A stretch of 64,000 nt of DNA from Ginglymostoma cirratum (Eukaryota), in the NCBI GenBank assembly GCA_024137785.1, contig JAHRHZ010000067.1, positions 5,729,016 through 5,793,015 of the forward strand. Reading direction: 5' to 3'. Within the stretch, counting starts at the first letter, position 1. Every line of letters starts with the position of its first letter. Positions 11,001 to 45,312 of this stretch are shown here, in pieces. Position numbers and translations under genes: made by a program. Below the pieces are notes generated by a model. That model did not search any database and had not been told where the DNA came from. It saw only the letters and a program-made list of their open reading frames with translations.

Positions 11001-14000
11001 CACCTATTGTCATTAAATCTTATGCATCATTCTGTCTGTCAACCAGTTTACTTTTTTTTTGAATGAGCATGCAATTTACTTTAAAGTTCAACAAGCTGAA
11101 TGTTTCTTAATAGTTGTATGAAGTTATAATGTCAGAGTAGACTGGGATTATACTCATTGGAATTCAGAAGAATGAGGGGAGATCTTATAGAAACATACAA
11201 GATTATGAAGGGAATAGATAAAGTGGAGGCAGGGAGGTTGTTTCCGCTAGCAGGTGAAATTAGGACTAGAGGGGCATCGCCTCAAAATAAAGGGAAGCAG
11301 ATGTAGGACTGAGGTCGGGAGGAACTTCTTCACCCAAAGGGTTGTGAATCTGTGAAATTCCCTGCCCAGTGAAGTGGTTGGAGCTACCTCGCTGAATGTT
11401 TTTAAGGCAAGGCTAGATAAATTTTTGAACAGTAAGGGAATTAAGGGTTATGGTGAGTGGGCGGGTAAGTGGAGCTGAGTCTCAAAGATCAGCCAAGATC
11501 TTATTAAATGGCGGGGCAGGCTTGAGGGGCCAGATGGCCTACTCCTGCTCCTAGTTCTTATGTTCTTATATACATTTCCTGAAGTATTATACAGCTTTGT
11601 AACTTTTTTTGTAGCCCGTTGGAGGGAAGTATAGGTTTTCAGTTTTAGCACAACTGAAATTTTAAATCAGTTTGAAAAGAGAATGCGTAAAGTTTACAAA
11701 AATATGTATCCTGACCTGTTTGTTTAATTTCTGATCTCCTAGACAGACCTGAGCTAAATGAGGGAGATGATGGTCAAACTTCTGGCAGATCTGCTGAATC
11801 TTGCTGTACTGGACAAAGAACTGTTGAAGATATTTGTAGGTAATTTTTAAGTATTTAATATCATTTATATATTACTGTGGCTAATCCTTATAGTACATTA
11901 TAATAAGTCTTGGCTTGGAGATATGGGTTAGATTGCTCATTTATCATTTAAATAGCTGAATGTGTCAATGCTTTTTGTCAATTCAGCTGTTCTAGCAATG
12001 TTAAACAAAACATTGTTGGTGCCTTCCTACAGGTTCCAACACTGGCAATTGCAGTTCTTGTGAAATCCTTTTTTAATACTTTTTGGTGAAATGAAAGAAG
12101 AAATGAAGGTGCAAAACATTAAATGGGTGAAAGTTTGGAAAGTGTTGTGTTGAAAGACATCTTTTTTCATAAGTCACTGAAAGCTAGCATTCAGGTCCAA
12201 CAAGCAGTTCTGAAGACAAATAGTGTATTTGCCTTAATTACAAGAGAAGTCTTGCTTCAATTGTATAGGAACACCATACCTCTACTATTGAATGCAGTCT
12301 GGTCCCCTTGCCTAAGGAAGGATATACATGCCGTAGAGGGAGTACAGTGGAAATTCACCAGGTTAAACCCTGGGATTGTCGGACTGTTCTACGAGGAGAC
12401 TTGGCCTGTATTCTCTATTCAGAATTTAGAAAAGCAAGAGGCAGTCTCATAGGAAGTTACACAGTTCTTAATGGGATAAACTGTATATACAGAAGGATTG
12501 CTTATTCTGTCTGTGGTGTCTAGAACTGCGTGACATAGCCTCTTATTCTGGGACTGGGATGAGGAGGAACTACTTCACGTGGAGGGTGTCGAATCTTTGG
12601 AATTCTCTTCCCTCAGAGGGCTGAGTAAGCTCAGTCATTAAGTAAATTTCAGGACGAAAATTGATATATTTCCAGTTACCAATAACATTGAGGGATTTGA
12701 GACAACATGAGCATTGAGGTAACTGATGACCGTGACTTAAAATGGCTGTATGGACTTAAAGGGCTGAATGACCTATTCCTGCTCCTATGTTCTAGTGATT
12801 ATTTAGGAGAAGGAAACTGTTTTCTGTTTTAGGTAGAGCAATCTAATAATTAAAATGTCCCATAATTGCATGCTTTAACACCACACATCACCCCTGGTTT
12901 TGACAGCTGGTCATTAATTACAATTATTTCCTATTAAAAGGAGAATTTGATGCTGAGGTGTTCTTTGCTTGCTTCTGCCCCCATAATTGAAAAGTAAATT
13001 TGGGCAATCAATCTTTCTCTTCCCCTCCCCTGACCCCAGTAGAAATGAGCAATCCTCCAATCAGTCTGAACAGAAAAGCGAAATGCTACCTGAGGGAAGT
13101 AGCACTAAACGGAGAAAGCAGGATGAAAGGATCCCGCTGGAGCGCTTTGGCCGAAAATACCTGAACGTCACTGACCTGAGTAGACAGATTTGGTGTGAGC
13201 AGCAAGTGATTTATGGACTGGAACTGCCACACATTGAACAACTGCGAGAAGAAGTTCCAGTTGTGAAAGCTGGTAGCTGTCTACACCTGGCAAGAGGTAA
13301 CTTTTTTTACACTGAAATGAACGTTGTTTGACCCAGCGTCATGGTGTAATAGCTGGAAACCACACGATCCTAAGATGCAGACCTTCATCAACAATTCTTA
13401 TGCTCTTGGAAAACAAAACCTGGCTGATGGTGGGAGGGGTGATTTTAATACTGGTTTTAAAATTAGAGTGGATGCAAAAAGAATGTTGTGGGGGAATAGC
13501 CTAACCAGAGATCACTAATATAAATCACCTGAGAAATCTAGTGGAGAATTCAGAAGAAACCTCTTCATCTAAAGAGTGGTGAGATTATGGAACCTGGTGC
13601 CACACTGAGTGTTTAAGGTGTATAGAAAGATGCACTTAAGCGGAGACGAGACAAATGTGAGAAAGTGAATAGAGGATTTAGATGAGGAAAGACTGGAAGC
13701 ATCTTGAGTGGAGCTGGCATGGACCACATGTCCTGTGAAATCCTATGCTGTGCCTTTTAGATCAGTAAATAGGAATAAAGTGCTTTCCGGAAAAGAGAAA
13801 AGAAAGCTATTACAGCCAAGTGTTATTCATGTGCACCTTCTAACATCCAGTTCAAAAGGTCCCTGTTACTGGTTGGCTGTATTTATCCATCCGGCCCCAT
13901 TGATCAAAGGTCAACTGGTATCAACATAGGCATATCATAGCTTCAAAATTGGGAGGGGTAAGAGAGGTAAAGTGATCCTGTACTTCCAAGTAAATAAAAT

Positions 14001-17000: not shown

Positions 17001-18445
17001 TCTCTTCTAAAAAATCATATTCTAAAACTATAAAATTCTGTATTATAGAATTTATGGAAAATGTTGTTATATCCTTAAAAACAGTAAAGATAATATTTCC
17101 ATACAATTTTTGTCTTGTAATCTCTAGCTACAAAATCTTGGTACTCCACTGTGCCTCTCTGTGATTCAGTACAGTTTGATAAAGCAGCAGCCAGGATTTA
17201 CAGGGTTTCATGTAGATTGATTAGTTGCTGGCTGGACTTAAATGACTTGATACGTAAATTCAACAATAATTGGCTGTTACATGTGTCTACACTGTGCATA
17301 TATTGGCAACATGAAGCTTGGTTTCTCTCCAACTACAGAAATCAATTGGAAAAGCTCTTATTTCTATCATGTGCTGGTTTTTAATCCTGTAATTATAGTT
17401 ACCGAATGTGATAGCAGCCTGATTCAAAATAAGGCTTCATTTAGTCTCGCTGATCAATATTCCTTCTTCAGCCAATTTCTCATTAATACTTGTGGGGCAC
17501 TGCTGCTGCACTGTCGCTGCTGTGGTTCCACACAGAACAGTTTTAGCACTCTTAAAAAGGGAAGCTCGTCAATGAGAAAACCCACTGTTTAAATGCCAGT
17601 ATTTATTTCCCGGTGTTGTTGTGTTTTGTGATCACATTCGGTAAATTAAACATGATGTCACTACATTCCAGTTGGGGAGCAGTTATAAATTACTGTCATG
17701 TCATTTGTGCATGGATTATAAAGCTTTTAAAAAAAAAAAAAAAAATACGCTGCACAACCAGGGAACTAATGAAGACCTCTGGTGTGTGAAATGAATAGCA
17801 AAGGTATGTTGAAGTGAAATTAGGAACTGCGCATACTAGAGATCTGAAACAAAAAGACAGGAAATTTGTGAAGAAACTCCATTCTGGTAGCATGTGTGGA
17901 GATGTTAAGTTTATACTTGAGTGATGTTGGCTCTGTGTATTGATCATTTCATAAAACTAAATCCTTTTTATTACCAGGTTAGCATATACAAACTTCTCTT
18001 CGAGGGTATGATGAAAGGCCAACTGAACAAGGAAACCATCACTGATCACCTTCACTTACGGAGAGAGCAGCCGTTTAGTTCGGAGATTCTGATGCATGCT
18101 CAAAAGGTGGGATTTTCCACAAACACGTTTGGTGACCTTCTGGATTTAATGTTGCTAAACCTGACGTATGCAGAGATCCCCAATATTGACACCATGAAGA
18201 TAGAATACTGTTACCAAGCGGATGCCTCTCTAATTGGAACAGAAGTGGTGTACTTTGACGAGGCGTGGGTTAAAAGTGAGTTAAAGCATTATTGCTCTTT
18301 CTGGAAGGGCCAGAGGGAGGCCAAGGGTGTGGATATTGAGGAGGCATGGAAATGTCAGTCTTGTGACTTTGCAGACATTTGTGAGTGGAGACAAAGTAAA
18401 GCTGAAGAAGCTACGCTAAAGAATCGAGCAAATCAAAGCAAATGA
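4881..18445 (+). CDS. EXO5: Exonuclease V (Fe-S cluster ssDNA exonuclease), join(4881..5031,11743..11839,13040..13296,15192..15296,15683..15855,17978..18445), 416 aa
   Basis: Translation matches vertebrate EXO5 motifs: [41 protein letters not shown]...[39 protein letters not shown] (4 Fe-S Cys). All introns are GT-AG, phases agree, total 1251 nt. Exons 1-2 are less certain than exons 3-6. Confidence 0.93.
5085..6555. mobile_element. Nested CR1 fragments: minus copy (5085-5305 and 6073-6555) split by a plus copy (5318-5985) and a PLE scrap
   Basis: ORF 5321-5902 is the CR1 ORF2 C-terminus; the flanks are contiguous reverse-strand CR1 3' sequence. Confidence 0.85.
7102..7734. mobile_element. 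Palindromic PLE-derived element spanning a 400-N gap
   Basis: Inverted ~90-bp arms; TSD GTTGAAAACT(G/A)GT at 7089-7101 and 7735-7747. Confidence 0.8.
11135..11570 (+). mobile_element. CR1 LINE 3' end
   Basis: Near-identical reverse complement of 41029-41460. Confidence 0.9.
11743..11839 (+). CDS. EXO5: EXO5 coding exon 2 (low-complexity linker)
   Basis: ctcctAG acceptor and AG|GTAATT donor; open frame that bridges phase 1 to phase 2 exactly as exons 1 and 3 require. Confidence 0.7.
12100..12795 (+). mobile_element. Degenerate CR1 fragment
   Basis: [21 protein letters not shown]. Confidence 0.75.
13040..13296 (+). CDS. EXO5: EXO5 coding exon 3
   Basis: Pyrimidine tract plus CAG acceptor; encodes [16 protein letters not shown] and HLAR; donor G|GTAACT. 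Confidence 0.92.
15192..15296 (+). CDS. EXO5: EXO5 coding exon 4
   Basis: ttttAG acceptor; encodes [27 protein letters not shown]; donor G|GTATGT. Confidence 0.93.
15683..15855 (+). CDS. EXO5: EXO5 coding exon 5 (catalytic PD-(D/E)xK core)
   Basis: Encodes [23 protein letters not shown]...ELKTR; donor CAA|GTGAGT. Confidence 0.93.
17978..18445 (+). CDS. EXO5: EXO5 coding exon 6 (C-terminal Fe-S cysteines, stop)
   Basis: ttaccAG acceptor; encodes [10 protein letters not shown]...[14 protein letters not shown], then TGA. Confidence 0.95.
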   Translation, partial: VSIYKLLFEGMMKGQLNKETITDHLHLRREQPFSSEILMHAQKVGFSTNTFGDLLDLMLLNLTYAEIPNIDTMKIEYCYQADASLIGTEVVYFDEAWVKSELKHYCSFWKGQREAKGVDIEEAWKCQSCDFADICEWRQSKAEEATLKNRANQSK

Positions 18446-28559: not shown

Positions 28560-28605
28560 ATGTATCTGGAGATGTTCCTGTTGCATTTTTGGATTCTCGG
28601 AGCCG
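28560..28605 (+). CDS. TAPBPL: Tapasin-like exon 1 (signal peptide MYLEMFLLHFWILGA)
   Basis: ATG in a small CpG-rich patch; hydrophobic leader; donor G|GTAAGA. Confidence 0.85.
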
Positions 28606-31600
28606 GTAAGAAAGTCGAACGCTTCCAGGATGAAAGAGGCAGATCGTGTTTTAAATTTTGACGTTTGTCATTTGACGATTGGAAAGCGGCGTTTCGAATG
28701 AAACTAAGTGCTTGTGGGATCCTTAAAGTGCAAGACCAGATTAAAATGGCAGTGCAGCTGCTTATCTTTCGGTTCCTGGTGATATCTGCAAATGGTCTTG
28801 AATATAATGAACACATCAATACGCGATGAACGTCATTGGCTCACTATGGCAATGACGGGAGAATAAAATGGCTTTTGGGACCCTTCCCCTTCTTTTCCAG
28901 TTGGGAGAAGATTAGAAGCTCATGCATAATAAGGACCGAGGGTTGGGTGAAACATCTTTCTGACTGCCATTGTGATTGTGAAGATTTCCTCTTTGGATCA
29001 ATTTAGCTCAGTATACTTGGACTATTCCCCCTGAACTACAAGGTACTGCCACCACAATGCAGTGCTGAAGGAGCAAGTCCTTCAGGGTGGGAGTATGGTG
29101 ATAGGTGAGTGCAGGTAGGGAGTGGTCAGTGAGGTGGGCGAAGTGGATAGGTGGGAAAGAAGATGGACAGGTTGTGTCAGGACAAGGAGGTCGGGATGAG
29201 AGGGAGGGTTGGTCATGGAATGAGGCTGGGGGGTGGTGGGGAGATTTTGAAACTGGTAAAGTCCACGTTTAGGCCTTTGGGTTGTAGGCTCCCCAGGCGG
29301 AATATGAGGTGCTGCTCCTCCACTTTCTGGGTGGTGCCATTGTGACACAGGAGAAGGCCCAGGATGGACATGTCACCCAGGGAATGGGAGGGAGAGTTGA
29401 CCGGAAGGTGTTGTTGTTTGTTGCGAACAGAGCGCAGGTGCTGTACAAAGCGGTCTCTGAGCCTCCACTTGGCCTCACCGATGTAGAGGAGGCCACATCA
29501 GAAGCAGCGGATGCAATAAACCACATTGATGGATGTGCAGGTGAACCTCAGTCTGATGTGAAAGGTTTGTTTGGTGCCTTGAATGAAGGTAAAGGGGGAG
29601 GAGTAGGGGCAGGTGTAGCACTTCCTGCGGTTGCAGGGAAAGGTGCCGGGGGTGGTGGTGCTAGTGGGGGAGTTATGGAGAGAGCAGTCCCTACGAAAGG
29701 CAGATGGGGGTGGGGACGGAAATATATCTTTGGTTGTGGGGTTGGATTGTAGGTGGTGGAAGTGGCGGAGAATGATACATTGGATATGGAGGTTAGTGGG
29801 GTGATATGTGAGGACAAGGGGGATTCTGTCTTTGTTTTTGTTGGGGGGAGGGAATGAGAGGACAGAGGTGCGGGAAACATAACAGATGTGGTCGAGAGCA
29901 TTTTTGACCACTGAAGAGGAGAAGTTGAGGTCTTTGAAATAAGATGACATCTGAGATGTTTGGGAGTGGAACGCCCCACCTTGGGAGCAGATGCGGCAAA
30001 TGCGGAGGAATTGGGAATAGGGGATTGCATTCTTGCAGGAAGGTGGGTGAGAGGAGGTGCAGTCTAGGTAGCTGTGGGAGTCGGTGGGCTTGAAATAGAC
30101 GACGGTTTTGAGGCAGTCACCAGAGATGGAGACAGAGAGGTCCAGGAAGGAGAGGGAGGTATCAGAGATGGTCCAGGTGAACTTGAGGTTGGGGTGAAAG
30201 GTGTTAGTAAAGTTGATGAACTGTTCAAGCTCCTCATGGGAGCACGAGGCAGCGCTGATACAGTCATCGATGTATTGGAGGAAGAGGTGGGGGATGGGGC
30301 CAGTGTAGATGCGGAAGAGGGACTGTTCCACGTATCCTACAAAGAAGCAGGCATAGCTTGGGCCCATGCCGGTACCCATGACCACCCGCTTTGTCTGTAG
30401 GAAGTGGGAGTTCCCTATCTTCCCCAGCCACACCCCTCCTCTCTCTATTTATTTCTGAGCTCCCTTCCCCCTCCTGCTTTTCTGAAGAAGGGTCCTAACC
30501 CGAAACGTCAACTTTCCTCTCTTGCTGCCTGGCCTGCTGTGTTCCTCAGTGTGTGTTATCGCTGAAGGAGTAAGGTTTGGTAGCCATAGTCTTACCAGAC
30601 CATAGGGCTGCTGTCTACTGGAGAGAGAGAGAGAGAGATGGAGAAAGAGAGAGATAACTGGTGGTGGTTTAACCTCAGCTGAGTGGTAGTGGTAGTCCTT
30701 CATAGTAATCTAAGCTGTTGCAGGAATTGAACCCACGCTAGTGGTATCTCTCTGCAGCACAACTGGCCATAAAACCAACTGAGCTCAATGCTGTTGTAAT
30801 GCTTTTCATGACTGATGGAATTGTAAACTCCTTATGACAGACAGCTAGATGTTAAAATGTCGCTACCTCTAGGCAATTAGAGATGGGCAATAAATGCTGG
30901 TCTAACCAATGACGTCTACATCCCATGAACAAAATAAAGTAAAGAAGGGGGTTGGCTAGTCAGTTGGTTGAGTGCAGAGTGACACCAACGATGTGGGTTC
31001 AGTTCCTACGTCAGCTGAGGTCAATGTGAGAGTCCTGCCTTCTCAGCCTTAGCCCCTCACCTGAGGTGTGGTGACCCTCAGGTTAAACTACCCATCAAAC
31101 ATGTCACTGTCTAATGGACAAGCAGCCCTATGATCATCTGGAACCATGGTGACTTCACCTTGTCTTCATTTTAAAGAAGAACAGAGAGTTCTTTGTTATC
31201 TGTGGAAGTGTCCTGGCCACTGAGGGAGTGCAACTGATTCCAGGGATGGCACGATTGACAGTGGGGGGAGATTGGACTGGTTAGGACTATGCTCACTGGA
31301 GTTTAGAAGAATGAAGGGGAGATCTGCTAGAAACCTATAAAATTTCAACAGGACTAGACAGGGTAAATGCAGTAAGGATGTTCCTTATGACCAGGGAGTC
31401 AATAGCCGGAGATCTCAGTACAAGGATACAGGGTAGATCATTTAGGATCAAGATGACGAGAAATTCCTTCACCCTGGGAGTGGTGAGCCTGTGGAATTGT
31501 CTGCCTCAGAAAGCAGTTGAGGACAAAAATATTTGATCTTTTCAAGAAGGAGGTAGACATAGTTCTTGGGGACATAAAAGAGTACGTGGAGAACAGTGTA

Positions 31601-34600
31601 CTGAGATAACAAGGTGTAGAGCTGGATGAACACAGCAGGCCAAGCAACATCAGAGGAGCAGGAAAGCTGACGTTTCGGGTCTAGACCCTTCTTCAGAAAT
31701 GGGGGAGGGGAAGGGGTGTCTGAAATAAATAGGGAGAAAGGGGGAGTTGGATAGAAGATGGATAAAGGAGAACAGTGTACCGAGTTGGATCAGAAACAGA
31801 AGTTGGTGGAAAAGCTCAGCAGGTCTGGCAGCATCTGTGAAGAGGAAGAGCCACCGGACCCAAAACGTTAACTCTGATCTTTTTTCTTCACAGATGCTGC
31901 AGATCTGCTGAGCTTTTCCAGCAACTTCTGTTTTTGTTCCTGATTTACAGCATGTGCAGTTCTTTCGGTTTTTATGTACTAAGCTGGATGATCAGCTATG
32001 ATCATACTGAATGGCAATGCAGGCTCCCAGGGCTCAATGGCCAAATCCTGCTCCTATTTTCTATGTTTCTATGTGTCTTATCCCTCAGCAAACACATCAG
32101 CCAATATCACCCATTCATGTAATTCATTTCTGTGAAGTGTATGTGGCCTGTGTTTGGCTCTGTGTTCAATCAACTTACATTTATATGATGGCTAACTTAT
32201 GACCAACTTACTCAGAGAAAGGTAGATCAAAGGCACTCCTTCAGTTGTTTACGGAAATCTAAGGGTTTTATTTAGGAGCTTTCTGTGAGCTTGTGGACTG
32301 ATTGAGTGGACAGAGTGAAGTGCAGTCTGGTTGAAAGCCTTTGAAACATACAACTGGATCCATATCATGGAGACCTATTCATACTTAACTTCATATTAGG
32401 GCTGAGGCTAGTTTAACTGCAGTCAGTTCAATAACATAACATCATTGTGCATGTATACTTGCATTTAAGACTACTTTAATTTCAGGAGTCACAATCTAAT
32501 CCATGTAAAATGAATTAGCTTCAGAATATAACCCACTAATTGAAAACTTTAGGAGCAGAACAAAATCTTAGCTAATATTCTCAAGTGCTCCAATCTTTTT
32601 GTAAGACGGAAAATTGACCTTGTTAAAAATGGACTAAAATGTTCAATTTTTAATCTACTACATGTTTTTGAACTTTAAACTCATGGGCCACTGTGACATC
32701 ATATGATGGGAATCAATGTTAAAAGATTTGTTTTTTCATTGAGGTGCCTGGGTAATTTGTGGAGTGTTGGTATGCATTTGGTATTAAAAGTTTTGTATTT
32801 AGATGCTTTTATGTATTTTTAAGGAATTGTGCAGGCGCAGAATGGACGCAGGATTCCAGGCAGAAAGTTGGACTGCGCGTTTGTAGAACAAAAGCAAAAT
32901 GAACAGGCTGAAGTGTTTGGGCCAATCATCATCAAAAGGAAGGCAATCCTACTGTTTGGTGATATTGTTACAAATGAAGAGGCCATTATTTTTAAAGTTC
33001 AAGGTAAAGATGAAACATATCTTCAAATTAATTCTCTCAGGCAAGCCCCCTCTGCTGTACATAGAGTAAAACAACATAAAAGTGCTTTAATGCTCCCAAA
33101 GTTACTTGTAATAAAGTCCTGCATTGTTTATTTTGTTAGAGTAGCAGATCTCCCATGGCATTGCTCATAATAATTCAGACAATCCACTGATATCTAAGAA
33201 GTAATAAATGCTGTAAAACACAAGAGAGGTAATTTGTAACACCCATCAATCCATTGGAAAATGAATAAATTAAGCACGATTCTGGTTTTATATCCAGCCT
33301 GATTATTTTTTATTGAAGTCACTGGTGAGTAATATTGTCCAGAGATTTAAACAGATGTTCCATATGATCCCTTGGTTTCCTAGGCAGCAAGTTCAGTCAA
33401 AAACATCCTCAAAACGAATTATTCTCCAGATAAACGTAAGTATGCATCTCTTTAATTGTACAACACTAATTGAATCCAGGGTTTGAAGCTGAGCAAGGAA
33501 ACTCGTAGGCTGATTCATGGCCAGCTCAAGGCAACACTTTAAAAGGACCAGAACCGCATCAGCCCTGGTCTTTATTAAATGGTTGAACAGGCTTGGAGGA
33601 TCAGATGGCCACCTTCTGTTCCTAAATTTTATGTTTCCGTGTCCTGCAGCACAGTTTCAGTAAATGACTTCAACCTAGACTTCCTAGATCAAAGGCAGGG
33701 ACAGTACCACTAATGATCAAGTTTGTAGTTCATTTTCAATTAAACCGATTTTTCTAATCAACTGTTCAGAGTTGTTTTTACACATCTCTGGAGCAGGTAG
33801 GATTTGAATCCAGGGACACAACCACTGCACCACAAGAGGGTCCCCTTATGTGCATTCAAGTGAAGCCTCAATGAATGCCATTCACCTGCATATAATTAAA
33901 CATAATTGACAAAAAATTAATCTGGGTATTAGTGGATACTATTTACCTGGCCTTTTGATCGTAATCCAATAGAATATATAATTGATGCAATCATTTAAGT
34001 CTCATATCAACCATAGGTTATGTGACTTGCCATGTCACAGTACACAGCGTGAAAGAATGAACAATCTTGCACACCCCATTTCAATTTGGTGCAAATGGAG
34101 CTTAACATAGTGAAGCAATTCATTTACTGAGACTTACCAATAAGGTGATATTATAGGGGTATATCTGGGCAGATTGCTGTGCTTAAGTTGGCTTCTGCAT
34201 TTCTTACATTACTACAGGGATTACTTGTCAAATGTAAGTCCTTGGCTGAAAAACTCTTGGAGATGTCTTGAGCTTGTAAAAGGTGCTAAACAAATGCATT
34301 TCTTTCTGTTTCATGAAGGACAAGGTGTTAACAAGAATCCATTGCTGGAAGAAAACAATTCTGCGCAACTTATGAAATTAAAACATGACAGGGCTAGCTT
34401 ACTCATTTAAGAGTGACTTGTTTCAATCAAAAGTTAGGCTGCATTTTCAATGTTTTGTTTGAAAACATCTTTTGGGACAGACAAGTCTACAGGTTCTTCA
34501 GCTCCCTGAAGTCAGCCTATTAAATATATATATTCAAGATGTAAATGCAATTTTTCAGAAAAATTTATAGGATCTTACAATGTGGGAGGAACAGCAAACT

Positions 34601-37600
34601 GTGCTTCATTAATATTGAGACCTCTCTCTATGTGACTAATTTCCATCATTTCTAATAATTTGCTGTTACTTATTATGTGAATCAATTTTTTTTTTTTTTA
34701 ACAGAGTCTTCATTAGATGTTTTCCAGTATGTGGACGAGAAACTGGACACATTGGGATGTGAAATTAATAGGTATTCTACTCTCGGCATCCATATGCCCT
34801 GGCCGCATGAGGGTAAGGAGGCTATTGAAGACATATGGTTCACAGTGACTTTAAAGCATTTAAGTAGCAGGTTCACTGTAACCAGCTTCATGAGGAAGAT
34901 AGAAGAGCCCGATAGCCAGAAAGTTGAGAAAAGTGAAGCAAAAACTGATGGTGAAGATTTATCCATTGGTGACACTGACACTCTGTTTGTTCAAGGTAAT
35001 GTTTTGATGTTGACCAGCTGAGTGCATGTTCAGAGTGAGTGCTGCAAGAATGTGTGTGAGATGTGCGCAATATTTGTTTTGCATAAGCATATTAAACTCT
35101 ATCAACTCCAACGATAATACAAGAGATGAAACATCCAAAGAAATATAAACAACTTACGACTGCATATTTAAGATGCTGAAATTCAGAGAACATGCAATTT
35201 CAAATAGTTTTGGCTGAGTTATTAGTAGTGATCTAACTGTCAGAAAAATGGACGGTCATGACTGTTTGTTTTTATTTGTTAGTGACCTATATTGTACACA
35301 CCAGGACCCCATTGATCAGAACTAAACTGAAGCAAGACCTCGTTCTGGACTGCGGCTACAAAATTGATCACAGTACAGACTTTAACGTTGACTGGCGGTA
35401 TCAGCACAAAGGGAGCAAGAAGAAATTGTTCTCCTACAATGGGCGACATCAGCGGATTGAATTCATTGAGAAAGGAGTTGAAGTATTCATGGACCAGATC
35501 AAGAAGGGAAATGCTTCACTCCGTTTAAGAAACATTGGTGTTCAAGATGAGGGATCCTACATGTGTTCTGTATATGTGCCTCCACTCTTTGGAACACACA
35601 CCATTGAGGTCGAGATTATGGGTAAGATGTTGAATCCAGTGAATTAATCAACATGGAAAGTTAACAGATTAGTGGAAATGTATTCATTCATTTGGTAACA
35701 AAACAGCGCAGAAGTCAGTAGAAGGTTGAAAGGATCATTTTCACCTTACTGCCTCCTAAGTATAGCTGAGGTTGTTGCTCCAGTAGTAGTGCCTGGATTA
35801 ATTATTCCAACCTACAGCAAGGTGCGTTTTAACATCATGCAGAAATGTAGAGTGCAAGTTGTTCAGATTTGTACCAGCGCACCAAAAAAAAAACCTTCAC
35901 CCTGGTTATCTTCTAATCAACCTGCTCAAGGGTGTTGTGACCTCCAGAGCAGATGGGAATTGAACCTAGATAACAAGGTGTGGGGCTGGATGAACACAGC
36001 AGGCCAAGCAGCATCATAGGAGCAGGAAAGCTTGACGTTTCGGGCCTAGACCCTTATCTAGTTGAGAGGTAGCATCACGAGAGCCTTGCCGTGACTATTA
36101 GCGATCAGAGTGATTGCAATCCAGCTCAGCTATGCATCAGGTTGTTTCTATTTACTGAAGAGGGACTCAGTGGCTTGCTCCTGGTCTTATGTTCTCCTCA
36201 TTAGAAGAGGAGTCATACCAGACACACAGTGGCAACTCTGCTCCTCTCTTCACAGATGCTGAGTTTCTCCAGCATTCTCTGTGTTTGGATATGGGCCTGG
36301 ATTGTGATTCTGTGGTAGAGACAAGTGAGACAAATATAGCAATGTAAACTTAAGGAAGCAGCATGGGATTGCCATTGTCCCTGTTCCGTAAACTGAGCAA
36401 ATGCCAAACCTTCACAGATGGATGTTGTAGTCTGCGCCCTGCTGCTATCATCATAATTTTGCCTCGAATGCAAACTGTTTCAGCAGCTTTTTGTTACAGT
36501 GTGTTAACTGTGTAATGTGATTGTACAGAAAATATTACTATCAAAAGCTGTTGAAACTACTGATTTTTAAAAGAAATTTTCTTGGTTACTTGTCATGTTC
36601 TCAATGAAAAGCTCTCTTATTCTAATCTGGTTCCAATTAAATGGATTGAAAGCTGAAAATCCCAAGTGTCAAAAAGCACCTGTGAATCTTGAATGTGTAT
36701 TCAGTTGATGTGAAGTGTTGCAATACAGCGTGTTTGCTTATGTTATAGAGTCGCCCGTTGTCTCTGTGAACCCTGATTCGGTTTCCCTTATCGAAGGGGA
36801 TGAACAGAAGCTGGTCTGTGATGCAGGGCGGTATTATCCACTTGATGTAGCGGTGAAGTGGCTGCGGCAAAGGGACGAGGGGCACATGCTGCCCGTTTAC
36901 ATGACGAATGTTGTCTTCTCCCCCCACAAGCAGAACATGGATGGCACCTACAACATGACCAGTTATTTCAGGTTCACAGCATCCCTCCAGGACAATGGTG
37001 TTACTTATGTATGTCGAGTTGAGCACGCCAGCTTAGTGAAACCAATCAAACAGTACGTCCAAGTGAATGTAGAAGGTAAGCAATGAACAGAGTCCTATGG
37101 TACTTATAATTGTTTGTGGTAAAACGTTCAATATGCAATAAAATTTGACGCCAGAGCTGCTCATGAATTTTATTTAACCTCTCATATTTATATTGAAGCT
37201 GCACTGGTGTAGTGAAAACCTCCTATGAGTTCACCTATCATGGGTTTTGAAACCAATCTGGTCCATTCATTTAAACTGATTAGCCTTCCCAAAGGTCCAA
37301 TCTTTGTGTCAGTTTTCTAGCAGTCATACACACCTGTTTTCTCAAAATCTGCTTCAGTCAGGAGAAAGGAGCTAAGTGAAACGAGGAATTCTGTACACAT
37401 TGACACATTTCTCTCCAGTGGAATATAGATGGCCATGGTAGTTACCCTCCATAATTTCCAAGCTCTTACCAAGCTTTTACAATACTTTGTTTCTTATGCA
37501 GATATTGTGGAGAAAGTTAAACTGATTGTAAGAAAAGTTCTTGCAATTACTTTGTTACTTTTTGTTGTACATTCAGTATATCATCACCCCATAGTTTATG

Positions 37601-40600
37601 CCCCATTTGAATGAGCAACAATTCCTTTAGCCTGCTTAGGTTTGGCATTATAGGCTCCATATTCTAAAATGGCTATTGTTAGTGTCACCATCCTCTGACA
37701 GGGAAGGATAGGTTAGTCTTTGACCTTTTTGCTCACAACGGATCACTCTGGCTTTGCCAAGCAAGCTGGGCTCCTAAGAACAATTCACAGATGGCAAGAA
37801 CTGCAGATGCTGGAGTCAGAGACAACACTGTGGAACACAGCAGGCCAGGCAGCATCAGAAGAGCAGGAACGTTAATGTTATAGATCATGTTTTGTTTTCT
37901 TTTAATGTGGCTTTCTTTCATTGAAACACAATGCTACAGATTTGGTACTAACAATAAAACAGAAGTTTATTGCACAGAAGGCATAAAGTTAAAATAAGAC
38001 AAACAAAGCTATCTAAATTTAACACGGTTTGAAAAAAAATTAAAACACACAGTGAAGCATAATCCCAGCCACTAGCCAAGGCCATCACTTGACAAGCTCC
38101 AGAGAAATTCCTTCCTTATCAAATCTGTAGGTTTGACTTAACTGCGTCTTCTCAGTTCTGGTCCCATGAGCTGTGAAGCTTTTTCAGTTGAAGAAGCAAA
38201 CCGTCAAGAGCTTAGATTTCCTCAGTATTTAAATAATCTGCAGTGTTATAACCAAACACTGCTGGTCTGTTAGTTTCACAGACTACGCTTTTCACTGAGG
38301 CAACTTATTTCCTTAACTGCTCTGAACAGTCTCCCACTGAAGATGAAGATATACCTGTTTCTCACCCCAGTCAGGTTCTCCAATGATCTCCCCACAAGCT
38401 TTTGAACTAAATTTAAAAACTTACTCATCCTAGCTTCTGCTAAGCTAATGACTTAATGTTTTCTCTCTCTGGTCACAATCCCCCACAATACAAACACGCT
38501 TGCATTAACACTCGAGAAGGCAAATACTGGTTTAAAATTGTGGTTCTGGAAAGACTGACCTAGTTAATTTCTAAAACCCTTCACAAAAATAGACAAACAC
38601 GTGGCAGAGATAGTAAGAACTGCAGACGCTGGAGTCAGAGAAAACACTGCGTAGAGCTGGAGGAACACAGCAGGCCAGGCAGCATCAAAGGAGCAGGAAA
38701 GCTGATGTTTCAGGTCAGGACCCTTCTTCAGACCCATTTCTGAAGAAGCGTCCCAATCCAAAACATCAGCTTTCCTGCTCCTTTGATGCTGCCTGGCCTG
38801 CTGTGTTCCTCCACCTCCACACTGTAAACACATGTGGTACTAGTTCAAGATCCAAACTCTCAAAAAAAGGTTAGTGTAGTTAAATTACACACTTTTCATC
38901 ACAACACTGTTACCACTGTGCATTGAATGTTGCTGGTGGCTAATGGCTTGCCAGTTAAGCAGACTGCTTTGTCCTGAATGGTGTTAGGTTTTGTTCGCGT
39001 TGTAGCTCCAAGTGGAGTGTGTTCCATCATATTCCTGACTATTACCTCATAGATTGACAAACTTTGAGGAGTAAGGATGTCAGTCAGTCTAAGCAGAATT
39101 CCATTTCTAGTCAATGGAAATACCCAGAATGTTAATAATAAGAGATAAATGCCATTGAATGTTGGGTAGCAGGCTAGATTTTATTTTCTTAGAGATGTTC
39201 ATTGTCTGGCAGTTGTGTGGCACAAATGTATTTTGCTACTTATCAGATAAGCCTGATTGTTGTCCGGGCCTTGCCACATATGGGCAAGAATTAATTATCT
39301 GAGGAGTTGTAAATTGTGCAGAGCATCATGTGATCATAAGTAATCTTGAAATTACATGCTTACTATTTGTTGTACATTCAGTATATCATTATTCCGTAGT
39401 TCATTCCCTATCTGCATCAACAATGACTCCTTTAGCCTACTTAATTTTGGCACTATGGGCTCTACATTCTAACATGGCTATTGCCAATGTCACCACGAGA
39501 CCGTTTGACTGGGAAGGATAGGTCAGTCAAACCATCAATATTACCACTCTGGCCTTATGATGGAGAGAAGATTATTGATGAAGCAGATGAAGATGATTGG
39601 GTCAAGAATACTATCGTGAGGAACTCCAACAATAATGTCCCTGGGCTAAGATTATTGACCTCTAATGACGACAACTACCTTCCTTTGTACTAGACATGAC
39701 TCTAACCAGCAGAGAGTTTTGCTCTGATTCCCACTAACTTCAGTTTTGCTGAGGCTCCTGGATTCCATTCTCAATGTATTACTGCCTTGATGCCAATGGC
39801 AGTCACAGTCATTTTCACTCATGGGTTCAGCTTTTTGGTACTTGTTTGAACCAAGGCTGTCATGAGGTCAAGATCTATACTGAGGACATTGCAAATGGAG
39901 CAGTGGAATTTCTCGCCATATGTATTAACTTGATTTTTAAACAATTGTTGGAAATTTCAACTAGAAAGATATATAACAAAACTTAAAACCATCAAAAGTT
40001 GGGATGAAATCTGGGGACTGGACATGATGTTGAATAAATAAAGGCTGCACAGTGTGTATAATGATAGCAAGGTCAGAGGGGTTGTACAGGGTGGGGATGA
40101 TGTGTTGATTATTTTAGGATTTTTTTTCTTTGGCTTCTTGCTTTGCGTCAACATGAATTACCTTGGAAGTGGACATCCACTTGTCAGTGATTGAACAGTT
40201 TTGAAATTGAGTAATTAAATTAAGTTCTACCAATAAACGTATTGAGTGAAAAATGAAAGATCTGTTTTCTGGTATTGGTTTGAAGGATAAATGTTGGCTA
40301 AGATACCCTGCTCTTCAAATTCATGACCTGGAGTAGCAATCTCAAAATACTGACACTGATTAAATGTTTCTTTAATTCCACAGCGCAATCTCAGACACTT
40401 CAATTTATCTTACTGTCAATTGTGATCGTCTTTATCTGTGCTGTTGTGATCATGCTGCTGGTTTACTTGAAAAAAGGTTAGTATTCTGCTATTACAGATG
40501 CTGTGCTGTTAGTCAGCATTCTCTGATTCAGACCGTCAACTTTCACTATAATCACCTTCTGTCTCGACTAATTTTCATTTGGTAGTGCAGAACTGAGCTT

Positions 40601-43600
40601 TGCTGAAAAAAGACACGTTTTGACAATGCTTTTCATCTTATACCCATCAGGACATTTCAAAAGAATATTAAGAAAGGAGAAAACCAGCATTTATATAGCA
40701 TGAGAGGAATGTGTTGATTGGTTGGCAATTGGATTCTGATTGGTAAAGGTGTTGCCATGAAGTATGCACCTATGTATGTAACACTGATTGACAGTTAACA
40801 GCCAGGCTTTGTTTACATTTTTTAAACTTGGCAGGTAGGCTCTGATTAGCCAGGGCGTTGCCCTCCGAATTGAACCAGCAAATGGCTGTTGTAACAGGTG
40901 TAGCCCATGTACATGTTATTTCTATCTGCAAAGATAAGGGCTTTGTGCATTAATGCAACTTCCAGTAGGTGACAACACCACTATCCATAAGAGGACACTT
41001 AATCAACTTCTCCTCTCATGCAATATAAGAACATAAGAACTAGGAGCAGGAGTAGGCCATCTGGCCCCTCGAGCCTGCCCCACCATTTAATAAGATCATG
41101 GCTGATCTTTGAGACTCAGCTCCACTTACCTGCCCACTCACCATAACCCTTAATTCCTTTACCTTTCAAAAATTTATCTAGCCTTGCCTTAAAAACATTC
41201 AGCGAGGTAGCTTCAACCACTTCACTGGGCAGGGAATTCCACAGATTCACAACCCTTTGGGTGAAGAAGTTCCTCCCGACCTCAGTCCTACATCTGCTTC
41301 CCTTTATTTTGAGGCGATGCCTTCTAGTCCTAGTTTCACCTGCTAGCGGGAACAACCTCCCTGCCTCCACCTTATCTATTCCCTTCATAATCTTACATCT
41401 TTCTATAAGATCTCCTTTCATTCTTCTGAATTCCAATGAGTATAATCCCAGCCTACTCAGTCTCTCCTCGTAATCCAACCCTCTCAACTCTGGAATCAAC
41501 TGAGTGAATCTCCTCTGCACCCCCTCCAGTGCTAGTATATCTCTTCTCAAGTAAGGAGACCAAAACTGCACACAGTACTCCAGGCGTGGCCTCACCAGGA
41601 CCCTATACAGCTGCAGCATAGCCTCCCTGTTTTTAAACTCCATCCCTCGAGCAATGGCAGACAAAATTCCATTTGCCTTTTTAATCACCTGCTGCACCTG
41701 CAATCCCACCTTCAGCGATTCATGCATAAGGACACCCAAGTCCCTTTGCACAGCAGCGTGCTGCAATTTTTTATCATATAAAACATAGTCCATTTTGCTG
41801 TTATTCCTACCAAAATGGATGACCTCACACTTATCAACATTGCACTCCATCTGCCAGACCTTTGCCCACTCGCTCAGACTATCTATATCCCTCTGCCGAC
41901 TTTCAGTGTCTTCTGCACACTTTGCTCTACCACTCACCTTAGTGTTATTTGCAAATTTTGACACACCACACTTAGTCCCCAACTCCAAATCATCTGTGTA
42001 AATTGTAAACAATTGCGGTCCCAACACTGATCCCTGAGGGACACCACTAGCCACTGACCGCCAGCCAGAAAAACACCCACTTACTCTTTGCTTGCTACTG
42101 GTCAACCAATCCTCTATCCATGCCAATACCTTACCTGTAATACCATGTAACTTTATCTTATGTAGCAGCCTTTGGTGTGGCACCTTGTCAAATGCCTTCT
42201 GGAAATCCAGATACACAACATATAGATGTTGATTTTTTTTTTTTTGTTCTTCCCTTGAAGTACCCTTAAGTCTTCCCAATCTCTTAAACATTCAATCTGT
42301 TCACAAAATGATGTGGTTGTTGAGTTTTTAACTGCTTTCTGTCCTTTCCTTTGCAGTTGCAGAAAAAAACAAGGTAAGAGCAATATAATTTGAAATTTTA
42401 CTAAAGCCATAAAGTTTTGCAAAGAAATTGTGCAAGAAAAGGATAATTTTAGAAGATCAATTGATATATTCACAATGCAGTTGTTTTTTTTTTTAATTCC
42501 CCTGACTATGAGAAAGAGATTAAACAGTTTGGGCCTAAACCTGTGCGGTTTTTAAAAATGAGAGATGGCCCAAAGAGGCTTTGCTGAGGGGCTGATGCTG
42601 AGAGGATGTTTCTCCTCCTGCCAGAATCTAGAACTAAGAGGCCCAGTTTCAAAATAAGGGCTGCCTGATTTAAGGTGGAGGCGAGGAGACATTTCCTCTC
42701 TCTGAGGCTCATTCACATTTGGAAGTCACTACCCTATAAGGAATGGTCAGTGAAGGTACTTAAGGCTGGGTTAAGTGACGGAGGTTGCAAATGGCAAGGA
42801 GCTATCAAAGGAGCCTTGGTGAGTTGCTGCAGTGAGTCTTTAGGTAGTATTCACATTTGCCACTGACCGTCAATGGTGGAGGAAGTAAATGTTGAAGATG
42901 GGGAGCCAACCAAGCGGGCTCTTTGTCTTGGATGATGCCAAGCTTCTTGAGGGTTGATGGAACTGCAGCCGCCTTGGCCAGTGGAAAATGTTCCATTACT
43001 GACTCATACCTTGCAGACAGTGGGCAGGCTTCAGTGAATCAGGAATTGAGTTATTGTCACAAACGTCCCAGCCTCTGACCTGCTGTTATAGCTGCAGTAT
43101 TTATATGATTAGTCCGGTTCAGTTTGTGGATAGTGGAGGATTCTGTGTTTGTGATACCCTGTAACGTCAAGGGGAGATGGTTACATTCTCTCTTGTTGGA
43201 GATGGTCATTGCCAGGCATTTGGGTGGCATGAAAATTATTTGCCACTTATCAGCCCAAGCCTGAGTGTTGTCCATGTGTTGCTGCATTTGTACATGGACT
43301 GCCTCCGTAGCCAAGGAGTCTTGAATAGCACTGAACATTGTTAATAATTGTACCTCTGAGGTTCACTTGGCAAACGTCCCCTCATCCCTAATCCCTGCTC
43401 CCCCTGTGGCCCCAGAATGTGGCATTTTTCCCCCTTAAGTCCTCAGCTGCTTTTCGCACCTGCCAGGAAGGCAGGCAGTCAGGCCAGTGGTGAATGAGGC
43501 CCTGAGCTGACTGGTCATGAACCACAAGGGTCTTATTCAGTGCTAAGCTGAGTAAGTGCCTACTGTAATTGCTAAAAAGGGGGCAGATATCTCTGCACAC

Positions 43601-43934
43601 ATACCTGTATGTCTTACCACCTGCATAGAGTGAATAGTCACACCTTTTGAATTTGGAATGGTCAAATTTTTCCACTGGGTTGAGGTCGGAGTAGATAGCG
43701 GAGATGTTGGGCTGGAGATTGATGATGCAACTAATGGTCTGTGGAGTTGGAAGTTTGGATTAAAAATTTAAACCTATTAATCAAAGTCAATGTGATTCAA
43801 TGAAGGGCTTTTTTTAAATTCCCTTATCTTTCAACTATTCTGAATAGCCCTTAAACTTAACATGTTGCTATAATATGGGAGTGTATTTTCTAATGTTCTT
43901 CCTTTTATCTCTTCAACAGAAAAAGCCGTATTGA
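28560..43934 (+). CDS. TAPBPL: Tapasin-related / tapasin-like type I membrane protein, join(28560..28605,32824..33003,34705..34995,35283..35621,36749..37075,40384..40476,42357..42373,43920..43934), 435 aa
   Basis: Signal peptide; N-domain LDCAFVE / CEINRY / WFTVT; IgV domain DC..DWRYQHKG..GNASL.L..V.DEGSYMCSV; IgC1 domain LVC...YYPLDV..W..HKQNMDGTY..YVCRVEHASL; TM segment; KKPY stop. All introns GT-AG, total 1308 nt. Family assignment is secure; the exact paralog is not. Confidence 0.88.
29078..30560 (-). mobile_element. Penelope-like retroelement, 5'-truncated with inverted body (RT + GIY-YIG, disrupted)
   Basis: Minus frame encodes MGTGMGPSYA, YIDD, FLDL and VVYCIRCF*CGLLYIGE (GIY-YIG); plus-strand 3' tail at ~30411-30560; TSD GCTGAAGGAG(C/T)AAG. 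Confidence 0.9.
30482..30509 (+). ncRNA. Minimal hammerhead ribozyme core in PLE terminus
   Basis: CUGAAGA-A-GGGU-ccua-ACCC-GAAA-C-GUC; helix I pairing is weak. Confidence 0.6.
31602..31766 (-). mobile_element. PLE terminal fragment with hammerhead core (31669-31696, minus)
   Basis: Reverse complement reads CUGAAGA-A-GGGUC-ua-GACCC-GAAA-C-GUC; TSD GGAGAACAGTGTAC. Confidence 0.75.
31791..31975. mobile_element. Palindromic PLE-derived element
   Basis: Same family as the 20194 and 25680 copies; degenerate 14-bp TSD. Confidence 0.7.
32824..33003 (+). CDS. TAPBPL: Tapasin-like exon 2 (N-domain)
   Basis: LDCAFVEQ resembles tapasin IECWFVED; donor G|GTAAAG. Confidence 0.88.
34705..34995 (+). CDS. 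TAPBPL: Tapasin-like exon 3 (N-domain)
   Basis: Poly-T plus ACAG acceptor; CEINRY and WFTVTL motifs; donor G|GTAATG. Confidence 0.9.
35283..35621 (+). CDS. TAPBPL: Tapasin-like exon 4 (IgV)
   Basis: VHTRTP, LDC, WRYQHKG, GNASL and DEGSYMC motifs; donor G|GTAAGA. Confidence 0.93.
36749..37075 (+). CDS. TAPBPL: Tapasin-like exon 5 (IgC1)
   Basis: LVC..YYPLDV..W and YVCRVEHASL motifs; donor G|GTAAGC. Confidence 0.93.
38607..38824. mobile_element. Palindromic PLE-derived element
   Basis: Inverted arms GGAGGAACACAGCAGGCCAGGCAGCATCAAAGGAGCAGGAAAGCTGATGTTT and its reverse complement. Confidence 0.75.
40384..40476 (+). CDS. TAPBPL: Tapasin-like exon 6 (transmembrane)
   Basis: ccacAG acceptor; encodes FILLSIVIVFICAVVIMLLVYLKK; donor G|GTTAGT. 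Confidence 0.88.
41029..42222 (-). mobile_element. CR1 LINE 3' fragment, antisense in tapasin-like intron 6
   Basis: Long open RT frame DFQKAFDKV..GVPQGSVLGP..FANN..LVRPRLEYC; (TTCTTATG) tail. Confidence 0.95.
42357..42373 (+). CDS. TAPBPL: Tapasin-like exon 7 (17-nt micro-exon, VAEKNK)
   Basis: Strong pyrimidine tract plus TTGCAG acceptor; donor AAG|GTAAGA. Confidence 0.75.
43920..43934 (+). CDS. TAPBPL: Tapasin-like exon 8 (KKPY-stop)
   Basis: Long pyrimidine tract plus AACAG acceptor; yields a terminal KKxx motif. Confidence 0.75.
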   Translation, partial: KKPY

Positions 43935-45312
43935 GACTGTAAAAGAGGATTCAGCGTAAGTCCTGATAAGGAAAGAAAGTAAAAACTTCTATTTATTATG
44001 GACCTTTAGCATGTCCTTGGAGCATTTGCAAAAGCTTCACCAGCAATGAATTACTTTGAAGGACTGAGAGTACAAGCACATGCTGCAGGGAACACGTGCA
44101 TAGCACCATCCCACAGAGAGCAAGCAATTGGCTGATTCATCAGTTTTGATGTTGTTCTCAGAGGGAGGAATGTGGATCAAGGCACAGAATTAACTCTCTG
44201 CACTTGTTCAGGTAGATGCTTTACACCCACTTGAACGAGTGGAAGTGGAGGACAGAGCCGCCCTTTAATGCCTGATCTGAAAGATGGCCATCATAAATGA
44301 CCCATTACTTCCTCAGCACCCTGTTGATGTGTAATTGTCAGGTCCCAGATTGAAACTTAACCTACAAGGTTCTGACTCAGACCAGAAGTGCTCTGAACTG
44401 AGCCAAACTCATCGAGACGTGAATTTCACCTTTACCTATCTCCAAACTATCAGTCATTGATTAGTGACAGAACCCGCAGCGTACCTATGACAACGTAAGC
44501 TCTACCATAATGCTCACCTACCCCTGACCCAGGCAGCTGTAAATTCTGTTAAACTGAACAGGTTTGTGTTTAAAGTTGAAACTAAGTTTAGATCAGTTGT
44601 TTGTAGAACAGTCCATTCCAAATTGTTCTCTTCATCTTCCGTTCTGTTTGTTCTAAATTATGGAGAACGAGTAGGACATTCACTCGTGCTAAGGTGAATT
44701 TAGTTGCCAGCTCAATGCCAGACCTCTCGTTCTCCTGATGAGAAATATGAAAGCAAGCCAGCAGTGTAACTCCGGTCTACTGGCCAGAAAATTGGTGATT
44801 GGTTTTGTAACAATCCCATTTGGACACAAACTTTACAGAAACATGAAAAACAGATGCAGGAGTAGACCATTCGGCCCTTCGAGCCTACACCACCATCAGT
44901 ATGATGATGGCTGATCATGCAATTTCAGTATCCCATACCCCTTGATCCCTTGAGCCACAAGGGCCACGTCTGGCTCCCTCTTGATTATATCTAACAAACT
45001 AGCCACAACAGCTTTCTGTGGTCGAGAATTCCACAGAACTCTCAAAGTGAAGAAATTCTTCCTCATCTCAGTCCTGAAAGGCTTACCCCTTATTCTTAGA
45101 CCATGCCCCCTAGTTCTGGATTTGCCCAACATCAAGGAAATTCTTCCCGTATCTAGCCTGTCCAGTCCCAACAGGACCTTTTATATGTTTCTATGAGGTC
45201 TCTCCTCATTCTTTTAAATTCCGGTGAGTAAAAGCCAATTCGATCCAGTCTTTCTTTTTATGTCAGTCCTGCCATCCCGGGAATCAGTCTGGCGAACCTC
45301 CGCCAGACTCTC

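Follow-up and report, generated by a model that had tools for sequence, protein, structure and literature searches.

A 17-nt exon 7 in shark TAPBPL and the predicted ER-retention tail that it completes

Structure and identity of the gene

The window, the 64,000-nucleotide stretch of Ginglymostoma cirratum DNA analyzed here, contains an eight-exon shark TAPBPL gene, and a previously noted 17-nt exon is exon 7 of it. TAPBPL is the third tapasin-family paralogue and distinct from TAPBPR. The features of the locus are the following:

28560..28605, forward strand: coding part of exon 1 (ATG and signal peptide); the N-terminus matches whale shark P0001
32824..33003, forward strand: exon 2 (N-terminal domain, Cys33)
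34705..34995, forward strand: exon 3 (N-terminal domain, Cys94, TAPBPL-type block)
35283..35621, forward strand: exon 4 (IgV; Pfam V-set, E 6.9e-12)
36749..37075, forward strand: exon 5 (IgC1; Pfam C1-set, E 2.6e-12)
40384..40476, forward strand: exon 6 (transmembrane, phase 1-1, 93 nt, GT donor), covered by spliced contigs
41116..42291, reverse strand: LINE reverse-transcriptase ORF in intron 6 (RVT_1, E 3.7e-19)
42357..42373, forward strand: exon 7 (17 nt, phase 1-0), encoding (V)AEKNK with the -5 lysine of the tail; included in 5/5 informative runs
42361..42362, forward strand: second AG within exon 7 (Ala-Glu codons), use not seen
43920..43934, forward strand: coding part of exon 8, KKPY-stop (lysines -4 and -3), its start preceded by CAG
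43935..44700, forward strand: 3' UTR, extending to at least 44700 and containing the skip-frame stop at 43940-43942; supported by colinear contigs of run X2, with a 12-nt coverage gap at 44607-44618

The LINE ORF ends approximately 65 nt upstream of the exon 7 acceptor. An additional ORF at 39445-39693 was considered as an exon and left out, because the eight-exon model alone accounts for all 435 columns of the alignment with P0016.

The encoded protein is 91-94% identical to the zebra and whale shark orthologues, and RefSeq already annotates orthologues in many sharks. Its domain order of N-domain, IgV, IgC1 and transmembrane segment (Pfam for the Ig domains) matches TAPBPL, six conserved cysteines are found at positions 33, 94, 196, 267, 309 and 374, and the transmembrane segment lacks the lysine characteristic of tapasin. 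In maximum likelihood trees, TAPBP, TAPBPR and TAPBPL formed three groups, each on a branch with SH-aLRT support of 100 (two quick runs without bootstrap, the group labels being assigned from names and motifs). The window protein was placed in the group ending in KPY, and cartilaginous fish were present in all three. Identity was 32% to bamboo shark tapasin (P0228) and 27% to shark TAPBPR (P0085), both of which belong to separate clades, and the LLHADC (C94) block of TAPBPR was found in P0085 but not in the window protein.

A sequence-only reading of the locus had drawn its analogy from TAPBPR. That TAPBPR can leave the ER is confirmed by PMC4008236, but the analogy does not carry over, as this gene belongs to TAPBPL, and TAPBP and TAPBPR are separate genes in other sharks. 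We also dropped a TAPBPR assignment based on PDB matches, because these contained no TAPBPL; B7-H6 scored equally high among them. Searches of the shark's own genome for TAPBP and TAPBPR matched only this TAPBPL gene, three of the searches starting with a stricter first step and none demonstrating absence.

Splicing of exon 7 and the resulting tails

Exon 7 has a CAG acceptor and a GTAAGA donor, and the pyrimidine fraction of 0.90 at -25 to -5 is the highest of the eight acceptors scored; its splice sites look the strongest of the gene. The exon is real, since spliced records contain it. With the exon included, the protein ends in ...YLKKVAEKNKKKPY with a stop at 43932-43934; with the exon skipped, the end reads ...YLKKEKAVLRL and the stop falls at 43940-43942, 8 nt downstream of the inclusion stop. 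Use of the second AG (42361-42362) as the acceptor would give an 11-nt form of the exon, ending in ...YLKKEKNKKKPY. The sequence thus holds the exon, both of its splice sites and the three conceptual tails as first described, and the translations bear out the frame logic and the di-lysine tail on inclusion.

Both the doubled acceptor and the proximity of the skip-frame stop are within chance. A stop occurred within seven codons in 30% of the frames sampled from this 3' UTR, and an AG falls among the first 11 nt of six of the seven non-first exons of the gene. The genome contains 286 copies of the 13-mer across the doubled acceptor, compared with an arithmetic expectation of about 130 for uniform 13-mers; the reversed control holds CpGs and makes an unfair comparison. 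We do not regard the duplication as a designed element: it is not rare, and the second AG arises because Val-Ala-Glu codons come right after a common acceptor.

RNA evidence was sought in 8 of the 16 listed runs. Three of these speak neither for nor against skipping: X16 yielded no reads, and nothing in X1 or X5 spanned the junction. Although the RNA label is attached to X15 and X16 only, intron-free contigs imply cDNA. All five runs with a record across 40476-43918, representing four studies and two species, contained the full 17-nt exon, supported by three raw reads in X15 and by contigs at depths of 22.8 (X2), 27.7 (X3), 44.3 (X4) and 26.2 (X6, organism B). Neither the skip nor the 11-nt form appeared among the joints listed for these five informative runs, which are of unspecified tissue and stimulation state. 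The three junction reads of X15 came from approximately 24% of the run and place the 95% upper bound on skipping at 63%. Raw-read joints with fewer than three reads were not counted (five weak joints were left out), and Logan contigs drop rare variants. Inclusion of exon 7 thus dominates in the contigs, while the power for rare forms is low. The proposed alternative use of exon 7 in G. cirratum accordingly found no backing at this low power, with no skip junction in the five informative runs and three raw reads.

Conservation of the tail and the meaning of skipping

We compared the tail among 47 protein records of sharks, rays and chimaeras, a set whose cluster listings may omit some isoforms. 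The C-terminus KKKPY was found in 40 of the 47, with an exon 7 segment of constant length. The exon 7/8 boundary appears conserved, as the sequences of chimaera P0047 and frog P0052 change exactly there. No record had the 11-nt form (0/47, including 0/40 of the KKKPY-ending homologues), and 26 of these 40 carry Met or Trp at the position that needs an A for the second AG. Of the suggested in-frame variant, the doubled AG itself stands, but its use was dropped as unsupported (0/5 runs, 0/40 proteins).

The inclusion tail K-K-K-P-Y places lysines at -5, -4 and -3 and satisfies both the K/R-x-K-P-Y pattern of TAPBPL and the KKxx and KxKxx patterns. In type I membrane proteins, lysines at -3 and -4 (KKxx) or at -3 and -5 (KxKxx) direct COPI-mediated retrieval to the ER. 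By this rule, the KKKPY form is predicted to bind COPI and to reside in the ER; family homology further suggests a role as an MHC class I chaperone, although the function of TAPBPL is described as speculative (PMC5824609). We consider it probable that exon 7 is a default-included exon completing the predicted COPI signal, and that its skipping is no selected switch but a by-product at low level. Inclusion would give the KKKPY tail and COPI would return the protein to the ER. An occasional skip would shift the frame and lose the signal, and would probably escape nonsense-mediated decay, because the exon has 3n+2 nt and is penultimate. Skipping at such a low level would account for the skip-type annotations scattered across the family with no need of selection.

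The skip form is represented by one of the 47 records, the basking shark RefSeq isoform X1 (P0021, XP_078404205.1), corresponding to 1 of 22 named species; it indicates that the form can exist, as had been supposed. Catshark isoform X1 (P0024, XP_072325823.1) arrives at the same skip frame by a different route, and a caecilian tapasin isoform, X2 (P0082), is compatible with an exon 7 skip. P0021 and P0024 match the set of 12 possible skip-frame pentapeptides, compared with 0 of 15,782 background windows. The skip-frame tail is, however, not conserved: it reads EKAVLRL in G. cirratum and ...GKEDS(M/V) in basking shark and catshark, the two being separated by an indel, and KEDS lies in the skip frame of the latter sharks but in the third frame of G. 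cirratum. While the KKPY frame is invariant, the alternative frame differs in both sequence and length (7 vs. 13 residues).

The sequence-only reading had proposed a regulated switch in localization, in which some cells or states deliberately skip exon 7 and make, in addition to the ER form, a TAPBPL that is exported or displayed at the surface. The frame logic holds, the skip stop lies in the apparent last exon, and records of the skip type are available from basking shark TAPBPL, caecilian tapasin and human tapasin (isoform 2); loss of the signal alone would suffice, making a conserved new tail unnecessary. Against this, the skip was seen in none of the five informative runs and in one named species, the new tail differs between sharks, and a distinct TAPBPR lacking the di-lysine tail already exists in other sharks (P0085, P0256). 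Human tapasin isoform 2, moreover, is described as mainly ER-localized and as working like isoform 1 (PMC11959276). The two outcomes named beforehand as refuting the switch, constant inclusion of the exon and a nonconserved skip tail, both lean against it within the depth of the RNA data, and we consider the switch very unlikely. Equally doubtful is its broader version, an ancestral regulated toggle of the tapasin family that would release shark TAPBPL to act in the Golgi or at the surface, in certain tissues or upon immune stimulation.

Human tapasin also offers a precedent for a milder alternative, that the skip form is noticeable in some tissues and has little effect, the protein staying in the ER via its partners or transmembrane segment. 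The basking shark annotation agrees with this, and a minor form is compatible with the RNA depth here; the five informative runs held no skip record in G. cirratum or organism B, and we find this alternative unlikely.

Finally, KKKPY may not be, or not solely be, a COPI signal: the near-invariant K-P-Y could bind another factor or permit cycling between ER and Golgi, and exon 7 would therefore be less important than exon 8. Outside cartilaginous fish, KPY is the C-terminus of 14 of 20 TAPBPL-clade proteins and RPY that of one, with positions -4 and -5 varying (for example REKPY, PKKPY, QRPY), and yeast Emp47p illustrates that proteins with a di-lysine tail need not reside in the ER (PMC2200007). 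The tail nevertheless matches KKxx and KxKxx in 40 of the 47 cartilaginous-fish records, and for some TAPBPL, PMC5824609 interprets the KxKPY-type tail as a signal for ER retention; we judge this alternative to a COPI signal unlikely.

With default inclusion as the preferred reading, the result matters little as it stands beyond a correct gene model for the shark TAPBPL orthologue, and it extends the tapasin-type layout of exons 6, 7 and 8, with its split di-lysine signal, to cartilaginous-fish TAPBPL. If skipping were regulated, it would provide the first handle on the working place of the uncharacterized third paralogue and point to an origin of splice-controlled ER retention in the family before the split of sharks and bony fish.

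Comparison with known tapasin-family genes

TAPBPL was described as a third tapasin paralogue of nonplacental jawed vertebrates (Grimholt 2018, PMC5824609); the human symbol TAPBPL instead encodes TAPBPR. No shark TAPBPL and no discussion of exons was found in the passages and supplement parts consulted from that article, the word "exon" having no hit in its main text, and no paper on splicing of shark TAPBPL in the literature searched, mostly without subscription papers. The window protein resembles TAPBPL in its clade (SH-aLRT 100), six cysteines, domain order, KxKPY tail and absence of a transmembrane lysine. According to the supplement of PMC5824609, K-x-K-P-Y ends the TAPBPL of gar, chicken, kiwi, turtle and opossum, and R/K-R-K-P-Y that of salmon 1a/1b. 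The window protein differs in lacking the extra cysteine that many TAPBPL have approximately 11 residues after the tapasin C95 position, reading WFTV where salmon and gar have WFTC; this cysteine is not universal, as turtle has WFTG in a by-eye comparison.

Human tapasin isoform 2 is a published case of exon 7 skipping of this kind. Tapasin and TAPBPR have eight exons each (PMC4008236), and human tapasin (TAPBP) shares with the shark gene a short 3n+2 exon 7 between the transmembrane exon and an exon 8 starting in lysines, with the di-lysine signal split across exons 7 and 8 and removed by the skip. It is a paralogue, however, and its exon 7 is 35 nt in contrast to 17 nt, as implied by amplicons of 235 and 200 bp (PMC11959276). 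Its skip form is reported to be expressed, while the shark skip was not seen in the five informative runs. In isoform 2, which joins exon 6 to exon 8, the ER signal is missing, yet MHC I leaves the ER at similar rates and is similarly thermostable with either isoform (PMC11959276). A legend there has isoform 2 retaining the last three residues, although a frameshift agrees better with the stated length of 459 aa. A further likeness is found in human TAPBPR alpha and beta, where trafficking is altered by a short, optional cytoplasmic exon (7a) lying between the transmembrane and last exons (PMC4008236).

Structure and identity of the locus

The TAPBPL coding region comprises eight exons (28560 to 43934) and encodes 435 residues, arranged as signal peptide, N-terminal domain, IgV, IgC1, TM and short tail. 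The features of the locus are as follows.

12987-13328 and 17921-18442, + strand: exonuclease V, upstream neighbour, Pfam Exo5 matches in two separate ORFs
40384-40476: TM exon (exon 6), phase 1-1, end phase 1
41116-42291, - strand: LINE reverse-transcriptase ORF in intron 6, 391 codons, with ~65 nt between its end and the acceptor of exon 7
42357-42373: exon 7, 17 nt, acceptor CAG, donor GTAAGA
43920 (start): last exon (exon 8)

As its Exo5 matches lie in separate ORFs, the exonuclease V coding region appears split by introns. Many further LINE fragments occupy 50-61 kb and 5.3-5.9 kb of the window, and an RT-like ORF at 29498-30448 had no Pfam match.

Whale shark and zebra shark supplied the nearest proteins (94% over 397 columns and 91% over 435, respectively), which places the window in a carpet shark. 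Quick ML trees gave three tapasin-family groups (SH-aLRT 100 each), all including cartilaginous fish, and placed the window protein with the KPY-tail proteins. This group matches TAPBPL as defined in PMC5824609, where this third tapasin paralogue is described as missing from placental mammals and a K-x-K-P-Y tail ends TAPBPL of gar, chicken, kiwi, turtle and opossum (supplement). Compared by eye, the N-domain block resembles the TAPBPL rows of that supplement and not the LLHADC block of TAPBPR. Tree placement, tail and N-domain block thus identify the gene, by sequence, as TAPBPL; it is not TAPBPR, to which the sequence-only reading had likened it and from which tree group and block set it apart. 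Searches with shark and chimaera queries found no tapasin or TAPBPR orthologue in the assembly, the top match always being the window TAPBPL (29-44%). Since other sharks possess both genes, the likely cause is a gap in the assembly or a limit of the search, and genuine loss from the species is conceivable.

Exon 7 in sequence and RNA

Re-reading the sequence bore out the coordinates, splice sites and tails proposed for exon 7. By conceptual translation, inclusion gives the tail YLKKVAEKNKKKPY*, with the -5 lysine from exon 7 and the -4 and -3 lysines from exon 8. Skipping gives YLKKEKAVLRL*, with the stop 8 nt further downstream, and use of the second AG inside exon 7 (the 11-nt form) keeps the frame and shortens the tail by two residues. 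The near skip-frame stop and the doubled acceptor are within chance expectation: 30% of frames in the window 3' UTR reach a stop within 7 codons, an AG lies within the first 11 nt of 6/7 non-first exons of the gene, and the genome holds 286 copies of the 13-mer around the doubled acceptor. Exon 8 also has an AG at +5/+6 (43924-43925), whose use would remove two lysines in frame; no joint there was among those listed for the examined runs.

Eight of the 16 listed sequencing runs were examined over the exon 6-8 region, and in five a record crossed the junction: three raw reads in X15 and contigs in X2, X3, X4 and, from a second species, X6 (depths 22.8, 27.7, 44.3 and 26.2). All five contained the whole of exon 7 (displayed as 15 letters between the sides, its final AG being counted with the far side), and in four studies the form that was assembled is the one with exon 7. 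Neither the skip joint nor the 11-nt form was among the joints listed for these five runs, which is weak evidence on rare forms, as three raw reads are compatible with skipping up to 63% at 95%, raw-read joints are listed only from three reads up, five weak joints fall outside the list and minor variants drop out of contigs. At this low power, the junctions lent no support to alternative use of the exon. In the junction-crossing records of all five runs the exon 8 side comprises 39 letters, to ~43957, and in X2 the next contig has half the depth; together these suggest that the 3' UTR holds a variant or branch near its start.

Conservation of the tail and the alternative frame

The protein records compared from cartilaginous fish numbered 47 (22 named species and 12 unnamed Logan entries); 40 of them ended in KKKPY, and in these the exon-7 segment did not vary in length. 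The 11-nt variant, already missing from the listed joints, was found in 0/47; given the same exon boundary, Met or Trp at the relevant codon would exclude the AG in 26 of the 40. In chimaera P0047 and frog P0052 the sequence diverges precisely after the exon-7 residues, suggesting an ancient exon 7/8 boundary.

In two of the seven non-KKKPY records, both from automatic annotation, exon 8 is translated in the skip frame. One of them, basking shark X1 (P0021, ...QLKK-EETILNIGKEDSM), represents the skip form; the other, catshark X1 (P0024), enters the frame seemingly via an upstream acceptor. They match the 12 possible skip-frame pentapeptides (background windows, 0/15,782) and count against default inclusion. 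A minor skip isoform that is real but neutral seems unlikely. The KEDS ending of both tails lies in the third frame of the window UTR, moved there by an indel, so that skipping in the window gives another peptide, of 7 residues. The tails thus show that the alternative frame is not maintained. A regulated localisation switch by skipping is very improbable.

KKKPY is kept in two further annotated carpet-shark isoforms, epaulette shark X2 (P0003, in-frame deletion in exon 3) and bamboo shark X2 (P0019, in-frame deletion at the exon 5 start), and in chimaera P0049 (UniRef V9KWE2), a predicted soluble form without TM exon 6 that retains exon 7; exon 6 of the window gene is likewise phase 1-1. Across TAPBPL, sharks to opossum, the Pro-Tyr end (43926-43931) is near-invariant and the adjoining lysines are variable, a conservation beyond what the di-lysine rule alone explains. 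Outside sharks it exceeds that of the -4 and -5 lysines, and KKKPY might not be purely a COPI signal; we think this improbable, and it is compatible with the other readings.

Interpretation and precedents

Quite probably, exon 7 is included by default, the tail serves di-lysine return to the ER, and skips are leak without selection. Exon 7 is included in the RNA and completes lysines -5, -4 and -3. Di-lysine tails are subject to COPI retrieval to the ER; COPI would thereby return TAPBPL to that compartment, where, by homology, it would act on MHC class I. As a 3n+2 exon adjoining the last exon, exon 7 when skipped by leak would shift the frame, remove the signal and probably escape decay, and such survivors would explain the scattered skip records without selection. 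Overall, the observation of exon 7 is confirmed, and its interpretation as a frame switch between an ER-resident and an exported or surface peptide editor is partly supported.

According to PMC4008236, tapasin and TAPBPR have eight exons each, three of which encode TM and tail, and TAPBPR has an optional exon for the tail that changes trafficking without ER retention. Human tapasin isoform 2 was amplified with an exon 6-8 primer, and the amplicons of 235 and 200 bp (PMC11959276) imply an exon 7 of 35 nt, which like the 17-nt window exon is 3n+2. The caecilian tapasin X2 sequence is compatible with the same skip, and the predicted P0049 form parallels human tapasin isoform 3, both being of soluble type. 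In PMC11959276, isoform 2 misses the ER signal yet is described as mainly ER-localised, and both the rate of MHC I exit and MHC I thermostability were similar; the skip mechanism is thus already in print for the paralogue tapasin, where it made little measured difference.
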